The notes below the pieces were generated by a model. It did no database searches, was not told where the DNA came from, and saw only the letters and a program-made list of their open reading frames with translations. From Octopus vulgaris (taxonomy: Eukaryota): 64,000 nt of DNA. A program made the translations under genes and the position numbers. Each line of letters begins with the position of its first letter. Within the stretch, counting starts at the first letter, position 1. The stretch covers positions 54,870,001-54,934,000 of the forward strand of contig OX597824.1 in assembly GCA_951406725.2 (NCBI GenBank). The letters are read 5' to 3'. Positions 1 to 55,620 of the stretch are shown here, in pieces.

Positions 1-88
1 ATCGTTTCGTACTACATCATTTTATTAAATGTTGTAAGTATACGTAGATTCATCAAGGGGCATATATATATATATATATATATATATG

Positions 89-120
<32 letters not shown>

Positions 121-124
<4 letters not shown>

Positions 125-2767
125 AATCAAGGAACGGCCATAATAGGCCATTCACCCACTAGAAATAACAGCCAAAGCTTTAACCGCAAAATAACATTAA
201 TTCCGTAAACCAGGAGAAAATTAAAAAAACATTTACCCTGTAATTTCTTATACGATGCACCGTTTCATCTACTGTTTAATGGTAAACTAACCTGATTAAA
301 TTAAATCAAGCCAATCTTCCATAGGCCCTTAGATTCCTCAGTAAGAAATAGCCAGAACGGAACAGATATTTTCACGAGGCATTTCCGTCCCTGCCTCGGC
401 AATATCTGACCTAAAATTTTCAAATCATCGCACGCACCAAATTTATCGGCAGCAAATAAATATAAGCCGCCGATTCCATTACGGAATCAACCAGAAAATT
501 CATAATTAATCAATATAGGGTGGCAAAAAATTTTGTAGAATTTTTTTGCCACCAGCGGCCTAGTGGGAAAAAATTAAATAGTCATAGACCATTTATAAGT
601 TCAACATCACAATCAAGGAACGGCCAAAATAGGCCATTCACCCACTAGAAATAACAGCCAAAGCTTTAACCGCAAAATAACATTAATTCCGTAAACCAGG
701 AGAAAATTAAAAAAACATTTACCCTGTAATTTCTTATACGATGCACCGTTTCATCTACTGTTTAATGGTAAACTAACCTGATTAAATTAAATCAAGCCAA
801 TCTTCCATAGGCCCTTAGATTCCTCAGTAAGAAATAGCCAGAACGGAACAGATATTTTCACGAGGCATTTCCGTCCCTGCCTCGGCAATATCTGACCTAA
901 AATTTTCAAATCATCGCACGCACCAAATTTATCGGCAGCAAATAAATATAAGCCGCCGATTCCATTACGGAATCAACCAGAAAATTCATAATTAATCAAT
1001 ATAGGGTGGCAAAAAAAATTTTGTAGAATTTTTTTGCCACCAGCGGCCTAGTGGGAAAAAATTAAATAGTCATAGACCATTTATAAGTTCAACATCACAA
1101 TCAAGGAACGGCCAAAATAGGCCATTCACCCACTAGAAATAACAGCCAAAGCTTTAACCGCAAAATAACATTAATTCCGTAAACCAGGAGAAAATTAAAA
1201 AAACATTTACCCTGTAATTTCTTATACGATGCACCGTTTCATCTACTGTTTAATGGTAAACTAACCTGATTAAATTAAATCAAGCCAATCTTCCATAGGC
1301 CCTTAGATTCCTCAGTAAGAAATAGCCAGAACGGAACAGATATTTTCACGAGGCATTTCCGTCCCTGCCTCGGCAATATCTGACCTAAAATTTTCAAATC
1401 ATCGCACTCGCGCCAAATTTATCGGCAGCAAATAAATATAAGCCGCCGATTCCATTACGGAATCAACCAGAAAATTCATAATTAATCAATATAGGGTGGC
1501 AAAAAAAATTTTGTAGAATTTTTTTGCCACCAGCGGCCTAGTGGGAAAAAATTAAATAGTCATAGACCATTTATAAGTTCAACATCACAATCAAGGAACG
1601 GCCATAATAGGCCATTCACCCACTAGAAATAACAGCCAAAGCTTTAACCGCAAAATAACATTAATTCCGTAAACCAGGAGAAAATTAAAAAAACATTTAC
1701 CCTGTAATTTCTTATACGATGCACCGTTTCATCTACTGTTTAATGGTAAACTAACCTGATTAAATTAAATCAAGCCAATCTTCCATAGGCCCTTAGATTC
1801 CTCAGTAAGAAATAGCCAGAACGGAACAGATATTTTCACGAGGCATTTCCGTCCCTGCCTCGGCAATATCTGACCTAAAATTTTCAAATCATCGCACTCG
1901 CGCCAAATTTATCGGCAGCAAATAAATATAAGCCGCCGATTCCATTACGGAATCAACCAGAAAATTCATAATTAATCAATATAGGGTGGCAAAAAAAATT
2001 TTGTAGAATTTTTTTGCCACCAGCGGCCTAGTGGGAAAAAATTAAATAGTCATAGACCATTTATAAGTTCAACATCACAATCAAGGAACGGCCATAATAG
2101 GCCATTCACCCACTAGAAATAACAGCCAAAGCTTTAACCGCAAAATAACATTAATTCCGTAAACCAGGAGAAAATTAAAAAACATTTACCCTGTAATTTC
2201 TTATACGATGCACCGTTTCATCTACTGTTTAATGGTAAACTAACCTGATTAAATTAAATCAAGCCAATCTTCCATAGGCCCTTAGATTCCTCAGTAAGAA
2301 ATAGCCAGAACGGAACAGATATTTTCACGAGGCATTTCCGTCCCTGCCTCGGCAATATCTGACCTAAAATTTTCAAATCATCGCACTCGCGCCAAATTTA
2401 TCGGCAGCAAATAAATATAAGCCGCCGATTCCATTACGGAATCAACCAGAAAATTCATAATTAATCAATATAGGGTGGCAAAAAAAATTTTGTAGAATTT
2501 TTTTGCCACCAGCGGCCTAGTGGGAAAAAATTAAATAGTCATAGACCATTTATAAGTTCAACATCACAATCAAGGAACGGCCATAATAGGCCATTCACCC
2601 ACTAGAAATAACAGCCAAAGCTTTAACCGCAAAATAACATTAATTCCGTAAACCAGGAGAAAATTAAAAAAACATTTACCCTGTAATTTCTTAAACGATG
2701 CACCGTTTCATCTACTGTTTAATGGTAAACTAACCTGATTAAATTAAATCAAGCCAATCTTCCATAG
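121..2767 (-). repeat. Head-to-tail tandem array of a 486-490-bp unit (5 full + 1 partial), each full unit with a type I hammerhead ribozyme; retrozyme/PLE pseudo-LTR-like
   Basis: Units start with tcacaatcaagg at 121, 607, 1095, 1585, 2075 and 2564. Copies are near-identical, have no ORF >=60 aa, and follow a (TA)n tract. Confidence 0.93.
243..349 (-). ncRNA. Type I hammerhead ribozyme (also at 729-835, 1217-1323, 1707-1813, 2196-2302)
   Basis: Minus strand reads AUUUCUUA-CUGAGGA-AUCUA-(58-nt hairpin insert)-UAGAU-GAAA-CGGUGCAUCG-UA-UAAGAAAU: perfect 8-bp stem I, 5-bp stem II, near-palindromic stem III, GUA cleavage triplet. Confidence 0.9.
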
Positions 2768-2777
2768 AAATATCTTC

Positions 2778-3137
2778 CGTGAAAATATCTGTTCCGTTCT
2801 GGCTATTTCTTACTGAGGAATCTAAGGGCCTATGGAAGATTGGCTTGATTTAATTTAATCAGGTTAGTTTACCATTAAACAGTAGATGAAACAGTGCATC
2901 GTATAAGAAATTACAGGGTAAATGTTTTTTTAATTTTCTCCTGGTTTACGGAATTAATGTTATTTTGCGGTTAAAGCTTTGGCTGTTATTTCTAGTGGGT
3001 GAATGGCCTATTATGGCCGTTCCTTGATTGTGATGTTGAACTTATAAATGGTCTATGACTATTTAATTTTTTCCCACTAGGCCGCTGGTGGCAAAAAAAT
3101 TCTACAAAATTTTTTTTGCCACCCTATATTGATTAAT
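2778..3137 (+). repeat. Inverted partial copy of the array unit with HHR at 2805-2911
   Basis: Reverse complement of the unit, from cgtgaaaatatctg to accctatattgattaat, then (TA)n. HHR reads atttctta-ctgagga-atcta...tagat-gaaa-cagtgcatcg-ta-taagaaat with one stem III substitution. Confidence 0.92.
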
Positions 3138-3254
3138 ATATATATATATATATATTTATATACATATATATATATATATTTATATATTTATATATATACA
3201 TATTTATTTATATATATATATATTTATACATATTTATATATATATATTTATACC

Positions 3255-27125: not shown

Positions 27126-27168
<43 letters not shown>

Positions 27169-27214
27169 AAACAAGTCAAAAATAGAAAATGCTAAAATAA
27201 TTTTATAGTGAACA

Positions 27215-27258
27215 TTTCAGTACCGGTTTCGGTCATTTTGAGACCTTTTCAACTGTAA
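27215..27258 (-). ncRNA. Minimal HHR, U3:A8 covariant (second copy at 31533-31576)
   Basis: UUACAG-UUGAAAA-GGUC(ucaaaau)GACC-GAAA-CCGG-UA-CUGAAA, with palindromic ACCGGU stem III. Confidence 0.8.
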
Positions 27259-27900
27259 CGATTAAATAATTAAATTTAGAAAAATTAGAAGAAAAGTTTT
27301 TTTAAAAGAATATTTCTATAGTAGTGTTCAGATTTAAGTGGCATTCTGCCTTTCTCTGACTCCCTTGTTTGCACTTGTGCGTTGGAGGTCGTTGTGAGTT
27401 CTTGGTAGGGTAGTAGAGGAAGAAGGCTGGTGAGGAAAGGGGGGTGGAAGAATCTGGGAGTGCCCTGATGGTCGTATTTTGAATGGTCAGTGGCGGCTGG
27501 CAGTCTCAGTTCAATTCAGGAGAATATTTATATTGACAGGCTTGTTTATAGAATTAGCGTAGGTGTTATACTAAAAAACATTAGTGACAAAGTTAAGGGG
27601 TAGGGGGTGGAGAAGTAGAAGAAGAAGGAGAAGAAGAAGAAGAAGAAGAAGAAGAAGAAGAAGAAGGAGAAGGAGAAGATGACGATGATGGTGATGGTGG
27701 TGATGATTATGACGACGATGATGATGATAATAATGATGATGAAGAAGAAGAAGAAGGAGTAGAAGGAGAAAAAAACAGAGAAGGGAGAATATGAATGGGT
27801 GTAAGTATAGCTATGAAGGGGCTGATTAGTAATGGATTCTATGGAGTGTAATATTTGTGTGTGTATATATATTTTTCTTTTATTCTAAAGTTGAGGTATA

Positions 27901-30219
27901 TTAATTGTTTATCGTAGACCCGTTAAGAAGTGGCTTGTATTTTGTAATAAAGAGATTTTCTTTACTTATTCGTTGTCTCGAGGTTGTATCGTCCCTAAAT
28001 TGGTAGAGGGGGAAAATTCTGAAGTTTGGTGTTTTTTTGTTGGCGCAAGTATCTATGTGTTGGCTAAAAGCTATTTTTCTGTTTTGGGGAATTTTTATCT
28101 GGGATCTGTGCAGGGCCATTCGTTTACGCAAACCATTTTTTGTTTGGCCTATGTACTGCTCTTGACACCCGGAGCAGGTTAGTGAGTATATTAGGTTCTC
28201 CGAAGCACATGTGAAGTTGCTTTTCACTGTAAACCGTTGTCCCTGTTTGAAGGAGAACTCTGATCCCTCAATTAGATAGTCGCATATCCCGCAATTGGGT
28301 CTTCCACATTTTTTTACTGTCGGCTTCTGTGTTGAAGAGTGAATTCGGGCTTGTGTAAGGAGACTTTTCATGGATCTAGGCTGTCTTTTGCTTTTTATGA
28401 TCGTGTGTGTTTGGAGGATTGTGTTCATTCTGTGGTCTTTTTTTAGGAGGGGTATGTTGTGGAGGATGGTGTCGACGGCTTCGTTATTGAGAGGGTTGTG
28501 TGTGGAGATGTATGGTAAGGCTTTTGGTTGTAAGTTTTTCTTTGATTTGGGATGTCTCAGTTCCTTGATGTTAAGTTGAAGGGCACGTTGAATGCACTTG
28601 TCAATAAGTGAAGGTGCATAGTTCCTGGTGATAAGGGTATCTTTTAGTTCTTGTAGTCGTGTGTCTCTGGTGTTTGCGTTAGAGACTATAGTGCATATCC
28701 TTTTTGCTAGATTGAAGGGGATATTCATCCTGGTGTGTCTGGGGTGGCATGAATTGAATGGAAGATATTGCTTAGAGTCTGTAGGCTTATAGTATATGTC
28801 TGTTTCTATTATATTATTAGCTTTCTTAATGAGGATATCGAGGAAGGGGAGTTGTTGTTGGCTATATTCCATCGTGAATTGGATATTTACGTCCAGTCCG
28901 TTTAAAATTTTCTGGAATTCTATGAGTTTTTCTATATTTTTATGCCAAAGGATGAAACAGTCATCTAGATATCTCTTCCAGTTGTTTTCTATGTAGATGG
29001 AGAAAGGGCTGCCATATCTTTCTAGAACCTTACGATACAGACTGATCTCTAGGTATCCTATGACTAGGTTGGCAAAGGAGGGGGCCATTCGTGTACCCAT
29101 CGCCGTCCCCGATTTTTGTCGGTAGAAGTTGTCATTGAAGGCGAAGAAGTTATTTTCCAGGATGAATTTAACCCCTTCTATCACAAATTCTTTTTTGATG
29201 CGGTGTGGTAGTTCGTTGGCGTGATTCTCTAGCCAGAATTGGATTGCCTCTAGTCCTAGGTTGTGGGGGATATTGGAGTAGAGGTTGACTACATCGAAGG
29301 ATACCAGTATGGTGTTTTTGTTTATAGTATTCGGCATATCTAAGTCGTCCCTTATATAGCTTTTGACATGTTTGAGGAGTGGTTTTAACAGGGTGTCTAA
29401 AAAGTTACTGAGGCGGTGGGTTTCGCATGCGGGACCTGCTATTATGGGTCTCAATTTGAGGTCATTAGGATTAGGGACTTTAATTATTTTGTCTGTAGCT
29501 ATCTTGCATGCGCTGCTTATTTTTTCACTTTTGTGGATCTTAGGTATACCGTAGAATTGGCTAGTTTTACTTGTGAAATTGGTCATATAATCATATTCTT
29601 TGTCGGTGAGCCCTGCTTTGTATGGGTTTAATATGGATTTTAGTTCCCTCATTATTTTTTGTTGACTGTAGTTTTGTGCCTTTTCATAGTATGTTGTGTC
29701 TTCCAGCATAGAAAGTACCAAAGTTATGTAAAATGTCGTATCCATTAAGACAACAGCACTCCCTTTATCGGCCTCTTTGATTGTTATTGTTTTATCTTGT
29801 TTTAATTTGTTCAACTCAGCCCATTCTTTTTTGCTGAAGTTTGGTTTGTGTTTTTGTTTGTGCATATGTTGATATGGGTAATTTGATATGTGGTCACAGA
29901 AATCATCAAGTGTTTTATTCTTACCTTTCGAGGGGGTGTAGTTACTCCTATTTCTGGCTAACGATTCGTCCTCGTTGTATTTATCGTATAGCTCCTCAGT
30001 AAGTCTTAATTTTCTGCAGAATTCTGCGATGTCTTCTTTCATTTCATTGTAGTTGGGGTGTTGTGGGGTGGGTGTAAACTTGAGTCCTTTGGAAAGTATG
30101 TTTATTTGGTTTGCTGTTAGTTCCTTGTGAGTTAGATTAATAAATTTTATTACTTTTGGTTCCTCCTGCTTGTTTGGTGCTATCTTGTGTCTCTGTGTTT
30201 GCGTATTGGGTCTAAAAAA
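27901..30219 (-). CDS. PLE reverse transcriptase + GIY-YIG endonuclease; the reading frame is open well upstream of the first ATG at 30042
   Basis: LSKGLKFTPTP (upstream of the ATG), ADKG, PKIHK, RPII, SFDVVNLY, GTAMG, RYLDD, FLDI, CGRPNCGIC, LIYSLTCSGCQEQYIGQT and PLLN, with no internal stops. Confidence 0.93.
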   Translation of the reverse strand, partial: FFRPNTQTQRHKIAPNKQEEPKVIKFINLTHKELTANQINILSKGLKFTPTPQHPNYNEMKEDIAEFCRKLRLTEELYDKYNEDESLARNRSNYTPSKGKNKTLDDFCDHISNYPYQHMHKQKHKPNFSKKEWAELNKLKQDKTITIKEADKGSAVVLMDTTFYITLVLSMLEDTTYYEKAQNYSQQKIMRELKSILNPYKAGLTDKEYDYMTNFTSKTSQFYGIPKIHKSEKISSACKIATDKIIKVPNPNDLKLRPIIAGPACETHRLSNFLDTLLKPLLKHVKSYIRDDLDMPNTINKNTILVSFDVVNLYSNIPHNLGLEAIQFWLENHANELPHRIKKEFVIEGVKFILENNFFAFNDNFYRQKSGTAMGTRMAPSFANLVIGYLEISLYRKVLERYGSPFSIYIENNWKRYLDDCFILWHKNIEKLIEFQKILNGLDVNIQFTMEYSQQQLPFLDILIKKANNIIETDIYYKPTDSKQYLPFNSCHPRHTRMNIPFNLAKRICTIVSNANTRDTRLQELKDTLITRNYAPSLIDKCIQRALQLNIKELRHPKSKKNLQPKALPYISTHNPLNNEAVDTILHNIPLLKKDHRMNTILQTHTIIKSKRQPRSMKSLLTQARIHSSTQKPTVKKCGRPNCGICDYLIEGSEFSFKQGQRFTVKSNFTCASENLIYSLTCSGCQEQYIGQTKNGLRKRMALHRSQIKIPQNRKIAFSQHIDTCANKKTPNFRIFPLYQFRDDTTSRQRISKENLFITKYKPLLNGSTINN

Positions 30220-31466
30220 TGAATGCGGTGGTTGGGACGGTAGCTAGTATATAGTTGTTCTTTGTTGATTAGGGGTCTCCTGTTGTGATTTATGGTGTGT
30301 GTTCTTGGAGCAGTATTGAGGAGAGCATCCCGATATCCCATATTCGGGTGTGGTGTTCTAGGAGGCCTTCGTTGGTAATCATTGCAAGTGGTGTGGGTTT
30401 GTTGTGCATGGTTGTTTAACCGGTTAATGGGACGAAGATTTCGTTGGTAACTCCTTTGGGTGGGGATGAGGTTGCAGTGTCTATGCTGTGGGTGTTGATT
30501 TATCCTTTCTCTGCTTGAAGTGGGGGTATTCCTGATATTGTATCGCTGGCTGCTTACAGAGTTAGGGTTAGGTCCTGTATTCTTTTTTTGATAGTAGTGA
30601 AGGTTCCGATTTTTAGACAGGTGTGTATCGGTGTTTGGGTGTTGTTTTGGTTTTCTTATTTTCTGGAAAGGGTTGTTGGAGGCGTGCTCTGTTTGAAAGA
30701 CGGCTTCATAGTCTGAGAACCAAGTGGCGCTTTTCTCCCAGCGTTGGAGAGATTTTAGTTCTTCTTTTTCACAGTCCTCTTTCCATAGTTTGGAGAACTT
30801 CTCTTGATCTGGGCCTTGGGTCATTTTGCGAATTTCTTCGTTGATATCTTCATCGGTGGATTTTATTTTATCCTCATTCGTTTGGGCCCTCAATTTCAGA
30901 AGTTCTATTTCCATTTTCATTTTTTCCAGTGCCATTCTCTCCCTGAGGTGTCTTTGTGTTTCAGGTTCTTCTGTAATAGCTTTGAACTGGAATTTACGTG
31001 GGAGGATTAACGGGGTCCGGTTGAGCCATTTTTCGTATATATCCGCTTTGTTGTTGTTTTGGATCATCTTCCAAAAGGCGAACTTTCTATCTCTGAGTGA
31101 TTTGTTCCATTGTGGTATTATGTGGTGTTTCATTTGGTATGTTGTTAGAGTATTGATCCCATATATTGACGCGTTTGGAGGTCCTTGGTTAGCGTTGTTA
31201 GAGAAAAATGTTCTAATTGTTTCGCATAAGTTTCCAAGGTTTTCGACAATTTCGGAGGTTGTATTTTTCGTATCTGTTTCTTCATTGTTCTCTCGATTGG
31301 GTTGAAGTGTCGAGTCGAATTTGTTCAAAAAAGTTGACAAATTTGTGTTGATTTTCTTGAGTTCTTTCAGTATTTCTTCGTTTATGGAGGTGATTGTGTC
31401 TGTTTTTGTCGGCATTTTCTGTATCTCGTGTGGGTTAATGATATGTATAAGGGTGAAAAGGAACAC
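30180..31466 (-). CDS. PLE upstream ORF1 (428 aa; charged helical/coiled-coil middle, basic N/R/Q/H-rich tail); likely ATG start at MPTKTD
   Basis: Uninterrupted ORF between the 5' pLTR and RT. It overlaps the RT frame by ~40 nt after the slippery site. Function is inferred only. Confidence 0.8.
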   Translation of the reverse strand: MFLFTLIHIINPHEIQKMPTKTDTITSINEEILKELKKINTNLSTFLNKFDSTLQPNRENNEETDTKNTTSEIVENLGNLCETIRTFFSNNANQGPPNASIYGINTLTTYQMKHHIIPQWNKSLRDRKFAFWKMIQNNNKADIYEKWLNRTPLILPRKFQFKAITEEPETQRHLRERMALEKMKMEIELLKLRAQTNEDKIKSTDEDINEEIRKMTQGPDQEKFSKLWKEDCEKEELKSLQRWEKSATWFSDYEAVFQTEHASNNPFQKIRKPKQHPNTDTHLSKNRNLHYYQKKNTGPNPNSVSSQRYNIRNTPTSSRERINQHPQHRHCNLIPTQRSYQRNLRPINRLNNHAQQTHTTCNDYQRRPPRTPHPNMGYRDALLNTAPRTHTINHNRRPLINKEQLYTSYRPNHRIHFLDPIRKHRDTR

Positions 31467-32250
31467 ACGAGTTGATATATATGAAAAAACAAGTCAAAAA
31501 TAGAAAATGCTAAAATAATTTTATAGTGAACATTTCAGTACCGGTTTCGGTCATTTTGAGACCTTTTCAACTGTAACGATTAAATAATTAAATTTAGAAA
31601 AATTAGAAGAAAAGTTTTTTTAAAAGAATATTTCTATAGTAGTGTTCAGATTTAAGTGGCATTCTGCCTTTCTCTGACTCCCTTGTTTGCACTTGTGCGT
31701 TGGAGGTCGTTGTGAGTTCTTGGTAGGGTAGTAGAGGAAGAAGGCTGGTGAGGAAAGGGGGTGGAAGAATCTGGGAGTGCCCTGATGGTCGTATTTTGAA
31801 TGGTCAGTGGCGGCTGGCAGTCTCAGTTCAATTCAGGAGAATATTTATATTGACAGGCTTGTTTATAGAATTAGCGTAGGTGTTATACTAAAAAACATTA
31901 GTGACAAAGTTAAGGGGTAGGGGGTGGAGAAGTAGAAGAAGAAGAGAAGAAGAAGAAGAAGAAGAAGAAGAAGAAGAAGAAGGAGAAGGAGAAGGAGAAG
32001 ATGACGATGATGGTGATGGTGGTGATGATTATGACGACGATGATGATGATAATAATGATGATGATGAAGAAGAAGAAGAAGAAGAAGGAGGAGGAAGGAG
32101 GAGAAGGAGAAGATGGTGGTGATGATGGTGGTGATGATGATGACGACGATATTTATTTATTTATTTATTTATATTTATTTATTTATTTATATATATTTAT
32201 TTATTTATTTATATATATTTATTTATATATATATATAAATATATAAATAA

Positions 32251-41400: not shown

Positions 41401-41905
41401 ATTACAAGAAGATAGAGGTATGAAAACGAAGACAGAGATTGAAAGGGAGTTATTCTCCGAATGTAAACAAGGATGGCTTCGTAAATTTTAACGGAGATGC
41501 TAGCTTAAGTTAAGGGAGATAAAATAATAAATAAAATATGAAATAGAAGATGAAAGTGATACTTATCACAACGATGCAGTCTGAATCTTCGTGCTTTACG
41601 GAATTATTTTCCTTCACAGGAAAGATGTTTCTTTTTCTTTCTTACAGGAGATAAATTAATTTAATGAGTTGCCACCATGTGCGTTTTCGGCGAAATGAAA
41701 TTTACTGTATTACATTTGGCTTCAGGCAAAATATATTACGTTTTTGATTAATATATTTTTAACCAATGTGTTGTAGTAGACTTTATGAGTTAAAGTTTTA
41801 CGTTTTGTTACTTTCAGTAGATTATTTCGCCGATTTATGCAAACTTTTCTGTTTTTTTCACAGAGCAAAGGCAAAACACGTCTTTCTCTGCGAGAACCGG
41901 AACTA
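38430..41905 (-). mobile_element. CR1-group LINE 5' half: 5' UTR, ORF1 with CCCH finger (39514-40410), ORF2 APE domain (38429-39670), truncated before RT
   Basis: ORF1 has CRFYLRGTCWHGEEGAGCRFEH. APE motifs LNIRGL, LTETHL, GGVAMY, YRPP, EDFNLP, TLDL and SDH. Confidence 0.9.
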
Positions 41906-44855
41906 TATATATATAATATACATATATCAAATAATAGAGGTAAGTTTATATTTTATGAGATATAATATAAATATATTTATCTCATAATAGAGTTATGTTC
42001 ATATTTTATCTTATATAATATATATATATTTATCTCATATTAGAGTTGTGTATGATATATAATATAAACATATTTATCTCATAATAGTGTGAAGTTTATA
42101 TTTTTTGATATATAATATATATATATTTATCTCATCATATGATAAAATATGAACATAACTCTATTATGAGATAAATATATTTATCTTATATCTCATAAAA
42201 TATAAATTTGCCTCTCTATATATATATATTTATCTCATAATAGAGATAAGTTTATATATTTTGAGATATAATATAAATATATTTATCTCATAATAGAGTT
42301 ATGTTCATATTTTATCATATATAATATATATATATATTTATCTCATAATAGAGTTGTGTATGATATATATTATACACATATTTATCTCATAATGGTGTGA
42401 AGTTTATATTTTTTGATATATAATATATATATATTTATCTCAGCATAGAGTTAAGTTTATATTTTATGATAAATAATATATATATATATATTTATCTTAT
42501 AATATAGTTAAGTTTATATCTTTTGTAATATAATGTATAAATATAGATTTAGGTTTATATTTTACCATATATATTATATATATATTTATCTTATAATATA
42601 GTTAAGTTTATATTTTATGATATATAATATATATATATTAATCTTATAATAGCGTTAAGTTTATATATCAAATATAATATATATATATTTATCTTATAAT
42701 AGTGTTAAGTTTATATTTTATGATATATAATACATATATAGAATGGTTGTATACTGTCAATCAAACGTGAACGTGACAGTAGGGGATTACACCACCGCTG
42801 TTTAGCATCGACGCTTCCGGATGGCTTTGACACATTTTTTTATCTGTGTCCTTGCTGCAGGCGGTGTTTGTCTCCCCATCGTAAATATATAAGAACACAG
42901 GGGAAAAAATGTGTCGAAGCCATCAGGAAGCGTTCTATCGCCCCACCACCGTACATATCTCTATGAGATATTTAGAAATTATATATGATAAAATATAAAC
43001 TTAACTCTATTATAAGATAAATATATATATATTATATATCATAAAATATAAACTTAACACTATTATAAGATAATTATGTATATATTATATATCATACACA
43101 ACTCTATTATGAGATAAATATATATATATTATATATCAAAAAAATATAAACTCTATTATAAGATATATATATATATAGTATATATCATAAAATATAAACT
43201 TAACTCTGAGATTAATATATATATATTATATATAATAAAATACAAATTTAACTCTATGATGAGATAAATATATATGTTTATCTTATAATAGAGTTAAGTT
43301 TATATGTTATTATATATAATATATATATATATTTATCTTATAATATAGTTGTTTATATTTTTTGATAAATAATATATATATATATATATATCAGAATAGA
43401 GTTGTGTATGATATATAATATATACATATTTATCTCATAATAGTGTTAAGTTTCTATTTTATGATATATTATATATATATTTATAATATAATATATATAT
43501 ATAAATATACTTATCCCATAATAGAGTTGTGTATGATATATAATATATACATATTTATCTGACAATAGAGTTAAGTTTATATTTTATGATATATAATCTC
43601 TCTCTATATAAACGGCAGTTTGTCTGTGCGTTTTCTGTGTGTCTGTTTTCTCGTACCCTCACCCTGACCACGGCTTTCAACCGATTCTGATGAAACTTGA
43701 CACACACATAGCCCAATGTCATAATTCAAAACTAACGCAGCGAAAATTTTGAAAAGTTCCCCCAGTTCAGAAAAAGATCGATAAATTCGACATGGGGTCG
43801 ACAATCAGAAACACAAACCACAGATGGTGTAGGGGACGCAACTCGGCCTTTTTAACTATCAAAAAAAATTTACCATCATTTTTTCCCCATTTTTTTTGCT
43901 ATTTTTTGGCTATAACTCTCTAAAAGTGCTTTATAGTTATTTCCCTTACAAACCCGAGCAACGCCGGGCGATACTGCTAGTATATATATAATTATTCTAT
44001 ATTAGATTTGAGTTTATATTTTTTGATATATAATATATATATATTTATCACATAATAGAGTTAAGTTTATATTTAATCATATATAATATATATGTATTTA
44101 TCTCATAATAGAGTTGTCTATATTTTATGGTATAAAATATAAGCAACTCTACTATAAGATAAATATATATACTTAAAATTTTAGGAGATAAATATGTATA
44201 TATTATATATCATACACTATTATGGAATAAATATATATATATTATATATCATATAATATAAACTTAACTCTATTATAAGATAAATCGATATATACTATAT
44301 ATGATAAAATATAAACTTAACTCTTTTATGATAAATATATATATATTATATATCATACACAACTCTATATATATATTGTATATCATAAAATATAAACTTA
44401 ACACTATTCTGACATAAATATATATATATCATATATCAAAAAATATAAACTTAACTCTATTATGAGATTAATATAAAAATATTATATATAATAAAATACA
44501 AATTTAACTCTATGATGAGATAAATATATATATATATTATATATCATAAAATATATTAGATAAATATATATATATATGTTTATCTTATAATAGAGTTAAG
44601 TTAATATTTTATGATATATAATATATCTTTATCTTATAATAGAGTTGTTTATATTTTTGATCTATAATATATTGTATTTATCTTTTAAAAGAGTTTATAT
44701 TTTTTGTTATATAATATATAGATATTTATCTTATAATAGAGTTAGGTTTATATTTTATAATATATATTTTTCTCATCATAGAGTTTAGTTTATATTTTAT
44801 CATATATAATATATTTATCTTATAATATAGTTAAGTCAATATTTTATGATATATG

Positions 44856-44899
<44 letters not shown>

Positions 44900-45490
44900 T
44901 TATCTCAGAATAGAGTTGTGTATGAAATATAATATATACATATTTGTCCCATAATAGTGTAAAGTTTATATTTGATGATATATAATATATATATATTTAT
45001 AATATAATATATATGTAAAAACTTATTTCAAATTAGAATATGATATATAATATATTTAAATATTTATCTCATAATAGAGTTGTTTATGTTTTATGATATA
45101 TAATATATATATATTTATCTCATCATGGAGTTAAGCTTGTATTTTATGATATATAATGTATATATTTATCTCATAATAGAGTTAAGTTTATATTTTATCA
45201 TATATAATATATATATATGTTTGTCTTATAATGTAGTTCTTTATATTTTATGATTTATAATATATATATATTTATCTTATAATAGAGTTAAGTTTATATT
45301 ATTTGATATATATTATCTGCCATATAATTAAGTTTGTAATTTATGATATATAATATATATACATTTGTCTTACAATATAGATAAATATAAATATATTATA
45401 TATCATAAAATATAAACAACTCTGAGATAAATATATATATATTATATATCATTAAATATAAACTTAGCTCCATTATAAGATAAATATATA
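41905..45490. repeat. AT-rich ~45-50-bp minisatellite in alternating orientations (also 47966-48330 and 49990-50030)
   Basis: Unit approximately tatatttatctcataatagagttaagtttatattttatgatatataata, plus its reverse complement. Confidence 0.85.
43597..43980 (+). mobile_element. Non-autonomous Helitron
   Basis: 5' TC..TATATAAA; 3' cccgagcaacgccgggcgatactgCTAG; A|T insertion site. Confidence 0.85.
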
Positions 45491-45835: not shown

Positions 45836-47965
45836 GTTTAACGTCCGTTTTCCGCGCTAGCACGGGTTGGACGGTTTCGACCGGGGTCTGGGGAGCTCGG
45901 GACTGCCCCAGGCTCCAGTCTAGTCTGGCAGTGTTTCTACAGCTGGATGCCCTTCCTAACGCCAACCACTCCGCGAGTGTAGTGGGTGTTTTTTACGTGC
46001 CACCTGCACAGGTGCCAGAGGGGTCTGGCATCGGCCACGTTCGGATGGTGCTTTTTATGGGGGGGTGCAGAAATATAGGGGAGCACCAGTGGGAGGGGTG
46101 GTTCAGAGGACAGGTACTAGGCAAGTAGAACGTAGGATATCGAGAGAGGGGTAATGCATGGTGAAATAGCGTATTGAAGAGGGGGTTCAAAGAGTAGACA
46201 CCTATAATGGTGGTGGGGGGTGCAGAAATATAGGGGAGCACCAGTGGGAGGGGTGGTTCAGAGGACAGGTTCTAGGCAAGTAGAACGTAGGATATCGAGA
46301 GAGGGGTAATGCATGGTGAAATAGCGTATTGAAGAGGGGGGTTCAAAGAGTAGACACCTATAATGGTGGTGGGGGGTGCAGAAATATAGGGGAGCACCAG
46401 TGGGAGGGGTGGTTCAGAGGACAGGTTCTAGGTAAGTAGAACGTAGGATATCGAGAGAGGGGTAATGCATGGTGAAATAGCGTATTGAAGAGGGGGGTTC
46501 AAAGAGTAGACACCTATAATGGTGGTGGGGGGTGTGCAGAAATATAGGGGAGCACCAGTGGGAGGGGTGGTTCAGAGGACAGGTTCTAGGCAAGTAGAAC
46601 GTAGGATATCGAGAGAGGGGTAATGCATGGTGAAATAGCGTATTGAAGAGGGGGGTTCAAAGAGTAGACACCTATAATGGTGGTGGGAGAAACGACATCC
46701 GGTATAGTTGGAGCAAAATAGAGATATCCAGTATTGGTGGTGGGGGTGGGTAGGGCGGGCGCGCCGCGAAGAATCGGCAGCCAATTTCTAATCAGTCCTG
46801 TAAGGGAGATAGATCTTAAATATCTATAACGATAACTAGTGAATTATACAGAATACAGAATATGCAAAAACGAGGCGAGGCTGAAATAGTAAACAGAGTG
46901 GCGACTAGGGGGATCAGAATAATAATAATTAATAAATAATAATAATAAATAGAGATACGGATGAATTAAAGTTCAAAGATTTCTTATCTTGGGATCACTT
47001 CGTTTACGGACAGACTTGGCAAAAGGAATTCGGAATCAAGAATGAGGCAGGTTACTAGCTTAAGTATGCATAGCCATGGCGAGGGGTAGGAAGAGAGGAG
47101 TCCAGACAGACGACAATGTAAAAAGAGGGGGAGAGAAGGGAAGAGAAAAACCCCGCGAAGAATCGGCAGCCAATTTCTAATCAGTCCTGTAAGGGAGATA
47201 CATCTTAAATATCTATAACGATAACTAGTGAATTATACAGAATACAGAATATGCAAAAACGAGGCGAGGCTGAAATAGTAAACAGAGTGGCGACTAGGGG
47301 CATCAGTTGTAAGTAATAATTAAAATCAAACTAAAGTATAATATAATCGTAACATAACAAAAGTAAAAATAGCAATTGGTATAAAATTGCTTCAATGACT
47401 TGAACTTGAATAAGTAGTTTCACATGAAAGGGAATAAAAGATTAAGTTAAAGAAAAGACTATTGTCTATACAATGCTGAGAAAAAACATTTGAACACATG
47501 GAGGAACGCACCTTCGAAAAGTGTCTTGGTGCGACTATGAAAGATATCTAATCAGAGGCGGTAAATTCGCCACAATAGAAGCAAGGTTTGAGTCAACGGT
47601 GCGTGCAAGGGAGTACTCGACTCGAACTTGCAAAGTGAAAATATTTTATTTTTACCTTTGTAGGACGTCCTGGATAAAAATTAAAAATGCCCCCCTTCCG
47701 CCCCAGAAGTAGAGGTAGGCTGGATTGTAGCCACACTTCTATACAAGAGGGAGGACAAGATACAATTGATCGAAATTACAAGAGACGGGCTAACAATTCC
47801 TGTCTGTTATATATTTTGAATATTGTTATCACTAGCGATATCAAGATATAACTTTGTATTTTGTATTTTATGTGTAGATGTATATATATAGATGTACATG
47901 TAATACGTACACATATATATATGCACTAGCACTATGACCTGGCAACGACGGGTCTTTAATGCTAG
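45491..47965 (+). mobile_element. Non-autonomous Helitron (same family as 32717) interrupted by an RTE-type insert
   Basis: Same 5' tctttatatatataaaactgag, LINE-ORF1-like fragment at 47440-47790, and 3' hairpin + CTAG. Confidence 0.85.
45804..47306 (-). mobile_element. Non-coding RTE-type retroposon with (GAT)n tail and internal tandem repeats
   Basis: (cat)n followed by gtttaacgtccg...ctggatgcccttcctaacgccaacc. It contains about four ~160-bp units at 46058-46690 and a ~150-bp direct repeat (46763-46915 / 47153-47305). The RTE assignment comes from familiarity with the 3' end. Confidence 0.65.
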
Positions 47966-48329
47966 TATATCATAAAATATAAACTTAACTCTATAATAAG
48001 ATAAATATATATATATATTATATATCATAAAATATAAACTTAACTCTATTATAAGATAAATATATATGTATGATATATCATAAAATAAAAACTTAACCCT
48101 ATTATAAGATAAATATATATATATTATATATCATAAAGTATAAACTTAACTCTATTACAAGTTAAATGTATATATATTATATATCATAAAATATAAACTT
48201 AACTCTATTACAAGATAAATGTATATATATTATATATCATAAAAAATAAACAACTCTATTATAACATAGATATATATATATTATATATCATAAAATATAA
48301 GATATATATAAGATATATATATTATATAT

Positions 48330-51848: not shown

Positions 51849-51940
51849 GAAATATATATATATATATATATATAATGAAATAAAACGATTTCTGTTCAAT
51901 CTTCGTTCAGCTCCATTTCTTCAATTCACCAATAATATTT

Positions 51941-51984
<44 letters not shown>

Positions 51985-51988
<4 letters not shown>

Positions 51989-54900
51989 AAATATTATTGG
52001 TGAATTGAAGAAATGGAGCTGAACGAAGATTGAACAGAAATCGTTTTATTTCATTCTACACGTGTTTCGAAAGGCACAATTTACCAAAATCCGATTGAAT
52101 AATGAGACCATATTATGTCTTTCTCTTCAGGAAGAAATAGGAAATCCGTTGGAAAAAACAAAAACAGAACAGAGGCGGAGCAAAACAAATCGAACTAGGC
52201 TCCTAAGAGCCCATGGCAAAACTGTTTATCAGTGTATGTTGAGAACCGGTGGTTGAAGATTTTAACGGGTCAGGCAGCGGTCATTCCTGTGGGTGAGGGT
52301 GTGTAGATGTTCTTTGTGACCGAGAATAAAGTTCTGACTATTTAAGGAATATTGGATGTTTTATAAGGGGCGAGAAAAAATCTACTTAGAGACATGTGTG
52401 TGTTTACTGTTCTATATATGTGTGCTGGCGCAGGTTGGCAAGACCTCCGTCAAGGGGTAGAAAACATTTTTTGTGTACGTGTGTGCGTTTGATCGCTCGG
52501 CTGTCAGTGGTTAAGCCGCTCTACACAATGGCTACTGCAGTAAGAACCGTTGGGTGACAGAAAAAAATATATTATGTTTTATGTGTGCGTGTGTTCGTCT
52601 GAACCTGCCTTGTCAAGGAAACCCCCCGTCGTCAAAAAACATAGCCTCGTTTATCTTACAGGAGTAATTCCCCTTGCAGTGGTTAATCGTAATTATCTTA
52701 AAGGCTATTTCAGAATTTGTTACCAAGGGCTATGGGTGCAGGTATTATTTATAAACGCTATTTAAAAGCCAGATAAGTGTAACGCCGCCAGTGGGGGCAT
52801 CGAAAAGCCGACTGTAAAAGTCCGTTTACCATCCAGCCTCTGGCGAACAAAATATGGAAGAGTTCGGAGACACAAAGGTTGCACTTCCTTCTGCCCCTAT
52901 CAAATGGGAGGGCCACCGACAAAATTGACCATTCCAGCCTGTAGCTTGAGTTCGTATCCTTCAATCGCCATATTAGCTTGCTGAGTCCCGTGGTCTGGCG
53001 CTTGTTCATGTCCCGAAAAGTTGCGTAATGATTGGAGATTCGCAAAGCCAATCTTGACGATGAGGCCCCTACATAAGTGTAGACATCTGAGTCCGTGTAA
53101 ACCTTGCATTGGTAGACGGCGTTTCTGATCTTGGAGTTCGTCGACGTGAATCTTATTCTGCTAGGATTAGTTTCTGAAATTAGAACTGCGTTCCTGTCAC
53201 TATATTTGTTACGAGAACTGCAGCCGCTTACTACTTTATTTTCCACTACGTCACTATTAACTAACGGAATAACCCCTGATTCTCCACTATCTATCAGAAT
53301 GCTGTCATTGCTAGTGCCCGTGGTGCTGCTATTGCGGGAAATGATGCTGGGGTTGCTATTGGGGCTCTCTACCCTACTCCCATTGTTACCGTCAACCACA
53401 GCACCCCTATTTATAACTATACCCCTAGTGTGTACTCCCTGGCTGGAGCTGAGATTATGTGTCACTGTACTGGCTCTCATATCATTATTACTACTATAAT
53501 TATTCCTACTGAGCATTAAACCGGGAGCGGAAGAGGCTGTGCCTCTGGAAAAAGGTGATAGGGTCTTAGTAAGTAGCCTATTATTATGGGAGGCGATTAT
53601 CTGGGCGAGGTTTTTAGTGTTGGAGAAAGCTATCCTAACTTTATGCGAGTTAACCGTGGAGTAATATTTGGAATTTCTGGGGAAGTTATTGGCGATGGCT
53701 TGTCTAAACATGAGGGGGAGGTTAGTTCTAATCTGCTTACCAAAGGGAATTACAAACCATATATGCTTATTCCTATCTGTGTGATGGGTCGGGACGCCAG
53801 CTCTCGCGTTCGGGTGGGTGATTCTCGGATGAATAACGGGTTTTGGGTTAGTGTGAGATCTCCCGGACCGATAATTATCCTTGTTCGCTAAATTAAATGC
53901 GGGAGCGACTGCCTCAGCACCCGCCGCGCTCCCGTCCCTACTTAAATTGTTTATGTTATTATAGACGGCCCTATCCTGATGACCGAATGATGGCATCGGA
54001 AGGGCCGGATCAATATAAATTACCTTCTGCCTATAACCGGCCTTGGATAGTGCGGCGTTATAAAATTCCGCTTTCTGCATAAAAATATCGGCACTGGCGG
54101 ACAAGCCAGACAATCTTAGAGAGATGTTTTTAACCAAATTGTCTGTTACGGTTTTGGCATGATTTGAGAAGACACTGACATACTTCAAATTAGTGGAAGG
54201 CTTATGGTAAGGGCAGTATGAGTCGCTATTAAGGTTAAGTGTAACGTCTAGGAAATTAGCCTTGGTGAGTTCATTATCAAAAACTATACTCATGCCCATT
54301 CTATTAAAAAACCTAGCTAACCTGCTCTTAGTTTTCTGCACTATTCTGTTCGTGGTGTTTTGCAGGTAAAACAGACAATCGTCACGATACAGGCCGCCCG
54401 CGATCTCCGGGAATTGGTCGGACAATTCGTAGAGAATATATATTCCGACCAAATCGGCTATCTGCGCACTATCCGAACTACCCATAGGCACATCAAATTC
54501 ATTGGGAGTATCTTTACGGATCCACAACTCACTATCAAACTTAAACGATTTCCTGGCAACTAAAATGATATCTATCTCTTCTCTGGTGAGGCCAGCCTTG
54601 TTGTGAGCATGCCAAAGGGCCTTATTTAGCACACTAGGGTTAATCGAGGGGTAGAAGCTGGCGATATCAAACTGAATGAACCTAGTACGGTTCTTATTGG
54701 GGATGGAAGAGAATCACTTCACTACCTGCGAGGAGTTGGCCCAGAGGCTGAGCTTCAGCTTGTTTACTAAACTAGGGATATATTTATCTAAAATGTACTT
54801 ACTGATTATCCCGATATCAGAGCTAGCAGGGCATATGAGTCTTAGCGCTGGGTTGGTGTGGAAGTTCGGTTTATGGTCCTTCACTATAAATCTGGGTTGC

Positions 54901-55620
54901 TTAGGGCTAAGCGGCTGAGTTCTCATTTGAATTCGGTGTTTAAATATTATTTCCTTAATTTCCAAGTTTACCTTCCTCAGGGTACTCCAATTGGTTTTTC
55001 TATAATTTTTCTTGATCTCTTTACCGAGTAAATCTAGGTACTGCTTAATGGGTAGCTTGTATGTGTTCCTGGTCTTGTCGGACTGGACCAGGACTCCGTC
55101 CGTTCTATTAATGTCCTTGGTAATTTTATCTAGGTAACTGAGGTGGGCATTTCTCCTGGGTGACTTCCTGAACTTAATCTTTCTAACTATGTCCCACAAG
55201 TCGTCCTCAAACTTCTTCAGTCTTGGGTTAGGTGGCGGCGTATCCAATGTTTTAAAAGCCGGCCGTATTCGGACGATGCTGTTGTCCGGTTCGATTTTAG
55301 ATCTTCGTTCTCGTGGAAGAAAACGAGCCATCTTATCCGGTTTATGAATGCGTTGGTTTTACAAACCAACTCCTTAAGGAAGGCGTCCTTCGGTGGTATG
55401 TAGAATGAAATGAAATAAAACGATTTCTGTTCAATCTTCGTTCAGCTCCATTTCTTCAATTCACCAATAATATTTTAATTTCAATTATCCGCACCAACGC
55501 ACGGTTGCAACACCATATGGTTGTACCTCCAACCGTGCTGTCTTCTGCTGTGATTTTTGCTACCAAGGTATCGGTTAAACTTTTGATTAATCTGCTACAA
55601 GATTATTCATCTTCCTATTT
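51985..55620 (-). mobile_element. Penelope-like element (Naiad-like RT + C-terminal GIY-YIG) with 3' HHR and inverted 5' end; one nonsense codon and one frameshift
   Basis: FINRIRW, QSDKT, VKDHKPNF, RLICPA, FDIASFYPSI, FDVPMGS, LYRDD, VYQC..YVGAS, TGLSKLIWRLK, CNLC and CPH. TGA at 54714-54716 and a frameshift near 55260. Confidence 0.9.
52046..52140 (-). ncRNA. Type I hammerhead ribozyme in the PLE 3' region
   Basis: AUUUCUUC-CUGAAGA-GAAAG..CUUUC-GAAA-CACGUG-UA-GAAUGAAAU, with palindromic ACACGUGU stem III. Confidence 0.85.

Follow-up and report, generated by a model that had tools for sequence, protein, structure and literature searches.

The repeat array and its ribozyme

The window analysed here, a stretch of 64,000 nucleotides from Octopus vulgaris (contig OX597824.1), carries a short tandem array arranged in two head-to-head arms. 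Arm 1 (positions 120..2767) consists of 5.4 tandem copies of a unit with a repeat period of 490 nt. Its RNA sense is the minus strand, and the RNA 3' end at position 120, termed site A, lies 131 nt past the ribozyme cut described below. A strandless junction of about 10 extra bases (2768..2777) joins it to the inverted arm 2 (2778..3137, plus strand), which comprises unit positions 365-490 followed by 1-234 and has its RNA 3' end at a second site, termed site B. An (AT)n microsatellite (62..121) adjoins the site A end on the left and an (AT)-rich microsatellite (3136..3252) the site B end on the right, neither with an assigned strand. Both flanks of the array are (TA)n, which masks any target-site duplication. 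Nothing LTR-like was seen in the layout around the array.

The unit is non-coding, the longest ATG frame on either strand being 26 amino acids, and an RT or GIY-YIG open reading frame is absent from its 490 nt. G or C accounts for 179 of the 490 bases, which places the GC content below 50%. Units 1 and 2 have three changes in common that are absent from the other units of the window. Elsewhere in the window lie an AT-rich 53-bp tandem repeat in several orientations (41904-45361 and 47966-48300) and a 156-bp tandem repeat (46060-46687).

The hammerhead core is present at six places in the window. In unit 1, a type I hammerhead occupies 243..348 of the minus strand, with stem I formed by 342-348 and 243-250, the core CUGAGGA at 335-341, stem II formed by 330-334 and 267-271, GAAA at 263-266 and a palindromic stem III at 251-262; the cut is predicted between 251 and 250. 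The hammerhead of arm 2 has one change in stem III. Across 17 units, 9 of the 11 core positions never vary, and all four bases occur at N7. In three subfamilies the sequences of stems I, II and III are altered yet re-paired, as read by eye since gap placement in stems I and II creates false mismatches. The opposite strand of the unit was searched for a hammerhead core and holds none. Rfam returned nothing at gathering score for the window and only chance-level hairpin matches for 100-800; its models probably miss this hammerhead because of the long insert in stem II. A U4C core change (L183, L229, L231 and L196-L225) is fixed in one older subfamily of the element and in the third of the Penelope-like element (PLE) families considered below.

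Stem III is a 12-nt self-complementary segment with a folding energy of -0.2 kcal/mol as a hairpin and -17.5 kcal/mol as a self-duplex, and 4 of the 5 stem III variants are fully self-complementary. Because the segment is near-useless as a hairpin and strong as a self-duplex, cleavage is probably of the dimer type, by a double hammerhead. When the active hammerhead fold was forced in the circular unit, it cost 1.4 kcal/mol.

A search of the 2.8 Gb genome with the unit gave 206 matches from the best 40 of 1420 candidates. Exact motif counts amounted to 2245 plus 245 for the 5' part of the ribozyme, 255 for the older stem III and 3759 for the B-end motif, with at most 2 matches for each control motif. 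The family comprises several subfamilies, each internally young; the older ones share 73-85% and about 68% identity with the window unit. At many loci the arrays are short and dispersed, with 1 to about 9 units. Contigs of four runs labelled as four organisms cover 29 of 29 unit bins, and one of the four may be the source sample.

Fold of the unit and selection on RNA structure

The earlier note had described the unit as folded along its length, with G-U pairs that work only on the ribozyme strand. The folding itself was borne out: all four hairpins lie where the note placed them, within the first full unit of the repeat (251-736), and on the minus strand each outperformed its dinucleotide-shuffled controls, with z between -3.6 and -4.8 and no more than 1 of 300 controls equalling it. 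The strand-limited G-U pairing held for the stem II insert (272..329, minus strand). This insert consists of a 14-bp hairpin (304-318 with 284-297) with 5 G-U pairs, plus a short outer helix, and folds at -17.9 kcal/mol on the minus strand (z -3.68; 0 of 300 shuffles as good) versus -6.6 kcal/mol on the plus strand (z -0.24; 119 of 300). It did not hold for the hairpins 363-408, 445-474 and 519-553, which contain 0, 1 and 0 G-U pairs and in single-sequence folding gave z-scores of -4.0, -3.6 and -4.8 on the minus strand versus -4.2, -3.1 and -4.9 on the plus strand. Nor was the whole unit asymmetric, with linear z-scores of -5.71 (minus) and -5.90 (plus). The circular fold, proposed as a check against shuffles of both strands, beat the shuffles with z -5.35 (minus) and -4.91 (plus), so that the structure stood and the strand preference did not; 61% of the circular unit is paired. 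The raw energies of the whole unit, -149.7 (minus) versus -108.9 (plus), differ mostly because the minus strand is rich in G+U. Since the z-scores are alike for the whole unit and for the three other hairpins, the strand effect in one sequence is local to the ribozyme, namely its stem II insert.

The hairpins differ in their surroundings and conservation (all minus strand). The strand-symmetric hairpin 363..408 has in its upper stem the least conserved helix among relatives. In the consensus fold of the family, an invariant upstream pentamer (unit positions 303-307, in window units 3-5) pairs with 362-367; this pairing uses the 3' arm of the 363-408 hairpin and is an alternative to its upper stem. 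In units 1-2 of the window it is gone through a small deletion. The 9-bp hairpin 445..474 has two pairs altered on both sides in relatives. Hairpin B (519..553, about 519-554) stands directly before end site B, and hairpin A (132..153, repeated at 618-639 and in later units) directly before end site A; both are predicted RT start signals. A domain at 479..694, closed by a long-range helix of 683-694 with 479-490 and with an inner helix of 641-648 and 560-567, contains hairpins A and B as well as both end sites, and its closing helix covaries.

The earlier note also claimed that selection acts on the RNA structure and suggested a covariation analysis over genomic copies. For this, 77 named pairs from the fold of the window unit were followed through 11 units of 68-100% identity. 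The pairing was kept in 95.6% of the pair cells, and the named helices covary, 14 of the 77 pairs being altered on both sides; this number was matched by 5 of 500 shuffles. The structure was taken from the window unit, and the relatedness of the rows inflates the shuffle controls. Slid controls were 26-44% paired and had at most 2 double-change pairs. In the 17-unit set, 8 pairs were changed on both sides, which is not above shuffles (71 of 500).

A strand preference emerged from the comparison of units. RNAalifold predicted 97 pairs at -81.9 kcal/mol for the ribozyme strand and 52 pairs at -39.9 kcal/mol for its opposite. When 8 regions were compared with 10 of the 17 rows as input, the ribozyme strand had the higher SCI in all 8 and the stronger z-score in 7, the hairpin 363-408 being the exception. 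The stem II domain prefers the ribozyme strand in 10 of 11 units. Within the young family, inherited variants (present in at least 3 loci) avoid pairs in comparison with single-copy decay (in pairs 11:47 versus 42:61, p=0.005), and those within pairs keep pairing oftener (8:3 versus 15:27, p=0.04). When G-U and A-C were counted at Watson-Crick pairs in a strand-neutral manner, the difference was not significant (28:20, p=0.31; 16:9, p=0.23), and an older subfamily has A-C in place of one G-U pair of the stem II insert. Overall, selection on the RNA fold is well supported by the near-invariant core with its free N7, the re-paired stems, the covarying helices and the consensus fold of the ribozyme strand; taken by itself, the G-U argument is a weak one except in stem II. 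A-to-G editing was considered as an origin of the G-U pairs and rejected, the array-wide variants having no A>G excess (6 A>G versus 10 T>C).

Insertion ends and the Penelope-like footprint

The ends of the arrays were analysed at 120 distinct loci, comprising 40 best matches, 35 loci collected consecutively on a single contig and 45 from an older subfamily, after five duplicate loci and one locus that overlaps the window had been left out. At 73 of the 120 loci the arms stand head to head, with one RNA 3' end lying at site A and its counterpart at site B; the combinations A+A or B+B occurred at none. The other 47 loci were not clean A+B, 39 being one-armed as scored and 8 having one irregular end. 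A further 28 loci, chosen by the B motif, yielded 10 scored as A+B and 0 as B+B. Site A lies about 131 nt and site B about 234-241 nt past the cut, which gives a spacing of about 105 nt, and a conserved hairpin precedes each site (132-153 for A, 519-554 for B). TA-rich DNA follows 180 of 201 outer 3' ends at the 120 loci. The inner breakpoints are scattered over the unit, only 1 of 144 falling at the ribozyme cut, and the arms measure up to 3.7 kb, reaching about 7.5 units at two-armed loci. These short, dispersed arrays with retrotransposition ends agree with the earlier view that the repeat is not an ordinary DNA satellite.

PLEs are described as leaving an inverted truncated copy and a 30-40 bp tail at one end, with a bias for microsatellites (Craig et al. 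2021, PMC8557442). According to Frangieh et al. (2024, PMC11167929), the purified PLE protein Poseidon PAc nicks both strands of AT-rich DNA, and its RT starts at two internal sites which define the tail and lie downstream of the hammerhead; in vitro, unprocessed RNA was used and ribozyme mutants still inserted. In one autonomous PLE family of the octopus genome, most ends fall about 38 or 105 nt past the hammerhead of that family, and head-to-head loci combine one end of each kind, the far end being bounded by the query. The retrozyme thus carries the "inverted copy plus tail" footprint of PLEs. As far as these sources describe PLEs, both have an inverted 5'-truncated copy with a tail at one end, a microsatellite or AT-rich target and two internal start sites downstream of a hammerhead. 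Unlike PLEs, the retrozyme has no RT or GIY-YIG frame, and its tail measures about 105 nt instead of 30-40. Its ends are strictly one A and one B in the genome, whereas in the available part of the in vitro work the PLE start site was alike on both strands (PMC11167929).

A partner search covered a few PLE families. Neither the window nor the fetched loci revealed a PLE frame continuous with an array. Homology of terminal repeats to the unit was found in neither of the two window PLEs, nor in the loci analysed for one of these two and for a third family (30 each), and the 28 loci chosen by the B motif contained no autonomous element with a retrozyme tail. At L032:2988-4050, a retrozyme B arm stands head to head with the 3' end of the third PLE family at its near end site, so that co-insertion is possible; at L146, a B arm meets a different repeat at the latter's far end. 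Joins of this type may stem from deletions between nested insertions and do not name the partner.

Further repeats were observed in the course of this search. The first of the window PLEs (51900-55620, minus strand, frames 52758-54713 and 54714-55358) is a young autonomous element that bears a minimal hammerhead (near 52077-52130) as well as an inverted arm of its own plus longer tail in (TA)n. Its copies number at least 68, with protein identities of 92-100%, and in many of them an 899-aa frame is open. The second (27160-32150) has a GIY-YIG match and terminal repeats which contain triplet microsatellites. A hammerhead-like motif seen by eye near 27215-27255 has core positions 3 and 8 both changed, and these would pair. 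A different non-coding repeat, rich in hairpins and ending at two sites in (TA)n, occurs at L146:2764-3320 and L131:1800-2110 and may likewise be PLE-mobilised. A duplicated PLE 3' region at L056:2200-3060 is dotted with short pieces of the retrozyme unit and looks like an assembly or polishing artefact or extreme template switching. At L062:3035-3220, a short two-armed end of a fourth PLE-like repeat adjoins an array; the initial 45 nt of the unit resemble it weakly (E 0.23).

Proposed mobilisation and relation to known systems

The unit is probably a hammerhead retrozyme that is encoded in the genome and has no coding capacity; its RNA is predicted to cleave itself to 490-nt monomers, which are likely to circularise and likely to be copied by a PLE protein into (TA)n. 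An array would be transcribed by read-through on the ribozyme strand, and the type I hammerhead would cleave the transcript, probably as a double hammerhead. Ligation by the host would yield a monomer circle which, judged from other retrozymes, would resist re-cleavage. A putative PLE endonuclease would nick both strands of a (TA)n target, and reverse transcription would begin at an internal site, which would be A for one strand and B for the other, in keeping with the observed end pattern. The cDNAs would pass the ribozyme junction and extend to up to about 7.5 units, and the 5'-truncated arms would join head to head. The hairpins of the earlier note would represent the conserved fold of this retrozyme RNA.

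As the arms cross the ribozyme junction freely, the template would be either a re-ligated circle or an uncleaved multimer. Rare variants, here those confined to at most 2 of 75 loci, bear on this choice. At 30 of 73 multi-copy loci, a rare variant is present in every covering copy, at 17 loci on both arms. Such variants would indicate a one-unit template and favour rolling-circle copying of a monomer circle; the 75 arrays were sampled from probably many hundreds, so that a variant counted as rare may come from a source array outside the sample. Where at least 3 copies cover the position, 27 rare variants are in all copies, 38 in some and 167 in one. Because some rare variants are partial and window units 1-2 share changes absent from the others, multimeric templates or later DNA exchange contribute too. 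A narrower reading, which we put forward tentatively and regard as nearly an even call, is that one monomer circle is copied by a PLE enzyme dimer from two hairpin-marked sites, one per DNA strand. The hairpins 519-554 and 132-153 would then be cis signals for the hijack of a PLE, and the loci a record of rolling-circle target-primed reverse transcription.

The same PLE-mobilised element might instead be copied from an uncleaved linear multimer, with another role for the ribozyme, circles as by-products and arrays homogenised later as DNA. The use of unprocessed RNA by a PLE in vitro and the insertion of ribozyme mutants, as reported in PMC11167929, point in this direction, as do the partial sharing of variants and the repeated patterns inside arrays; both templates would lead to read-through of the cut. 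We nevertheless consider a multimeric template unlikely: the 17 loci with rare variants in all copies of both inverted arms call for a bottleneck of one unit, arms as long as about 7.5 units would become shorter in every round if no step re-amplified them, and the ribozyme is conserved over subfamilies that are about 30% diverged.

Hammerhead viroids and viroid-like RNAs are not known to have a DNA counterpart and generally carry ribozymes in both polarities. The unit resembles them in size, in its folded predicted circle and in its hammerhead, and differs in being genome-encoded, in having the motif on one strand only and in its retrotransposition ends. An autonomous viroid-like RNA with RNA-to-RNA replication, of which the genomic copies would be incidental retro-insertions, could account for the size, the 61% paired circular fold, the ribozyme, the structural selection and the internally young subfamilies. 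It is nonetheless very improbable, as the opposite strand has no hammerhead core, the insertion end sites are dedicated and conserved, and thousands of DNA motif matches suffice for persistence. The earlier description as a viroid-like circular RNA thus holds only in a loose sense: the element is genome-encoded, has a one-strand ribozyme motif, fits the non-LTR retrozymes and would be circular. A DNA satellite or fold-back DNA repeat, with hairpins that act or arose at the DNA level, would agree with the strand symmetry of the whole unit and of three of the four hairpins in single-sequence folding and with the non-significant G-U versus A-C count, but is the least probable explanation in view of the conserved one-strand ribozyme with its free N7, the preference of the stem II domain for the ribozyme strand (10 of 11 units) and the short dispersed arrays with fixed retrotransposition ends.

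To the question of how animal retrozymes return to the genome, this family contributes a mechanistic footprint, in which each arm uses one of two fixed start sites and the target is (TA)n. The footprint points to exact hairpins and to a short list of PLE families as candidates. The strict A+B pairing predicts an asymmetric use of start sites, which is not seen in the available portion of the in vitro PLE work (PMC11167929). A 2020 review states that retrozyme repeats show no motif pointing to a helper element (PMC7761336); if the tentative reading of a monomer circle copied from two marked sites is correct, the hairpins 519-554 and 132-153 would be such a motif. Searches of full-text literature, mostly non-subscription, revealed neither a description of two-site, one-per-arm ends in retrozymes nor a paper on this 490-nt family; the supplements of PMC7229834 and of bioRxiv 10.64898/2026.07.22.740005 may contain the one or the other.

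In Cervera and de la Peña (2020, PMC7229834), non-LTR retrozymes are described as tandem repeats with type I hammerheads and abundant circles in coral, mussel and axolotl, PLEs being proposed as helpers and the axolotl retrozymes having dimer-type cleavage. Non-LTR retrozymes are further characterised by the absence of LTRs, primer-binding sites and polypurine tracts and by target-site duplications which, where present, exceed 4 bp. A recent preprint argues for a PLE origin from co-occurrence and from trees and sequence kinship and reports cleavage of 1 of 9 elements in its tests (Li, Clavereau and Pollet 2026, bioRxiv 10.64898/2026.07.22.740005). The octopus element is a new member of this class. 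As far as these two sources characterise animal non-LTR retrozymes, it shares with them the tandem, non-coding organisation, a type I hammerhead in each unit, a GC content below 50%, a self-paired predicted circle, thousands of copies and the presence of PLEs in the same genome. With 490 nt, the unit lies just over the range of 150-450 given in PMC7229834 and inside the 51-972 of bioRxiv 10.64898/2026.07.22.740005. A sister PLE terminal repeat, reported for 21 of 22 matching elements in a frog study, was not found here in the families sampled. Like the amphibian satellite-type hammerheads described as cleaving as dimers in PMC7229834 and PMC7761336, the unit has a weak palindromic stem III and is predicted to cleave as a dimer; unlike them, its stem III is longer (12 nt) and its stem II carries a long insert. 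This 50-nt hairpin insert in stem II also distinguishes the unit from the non-LTR retrozymes described in the available literature.
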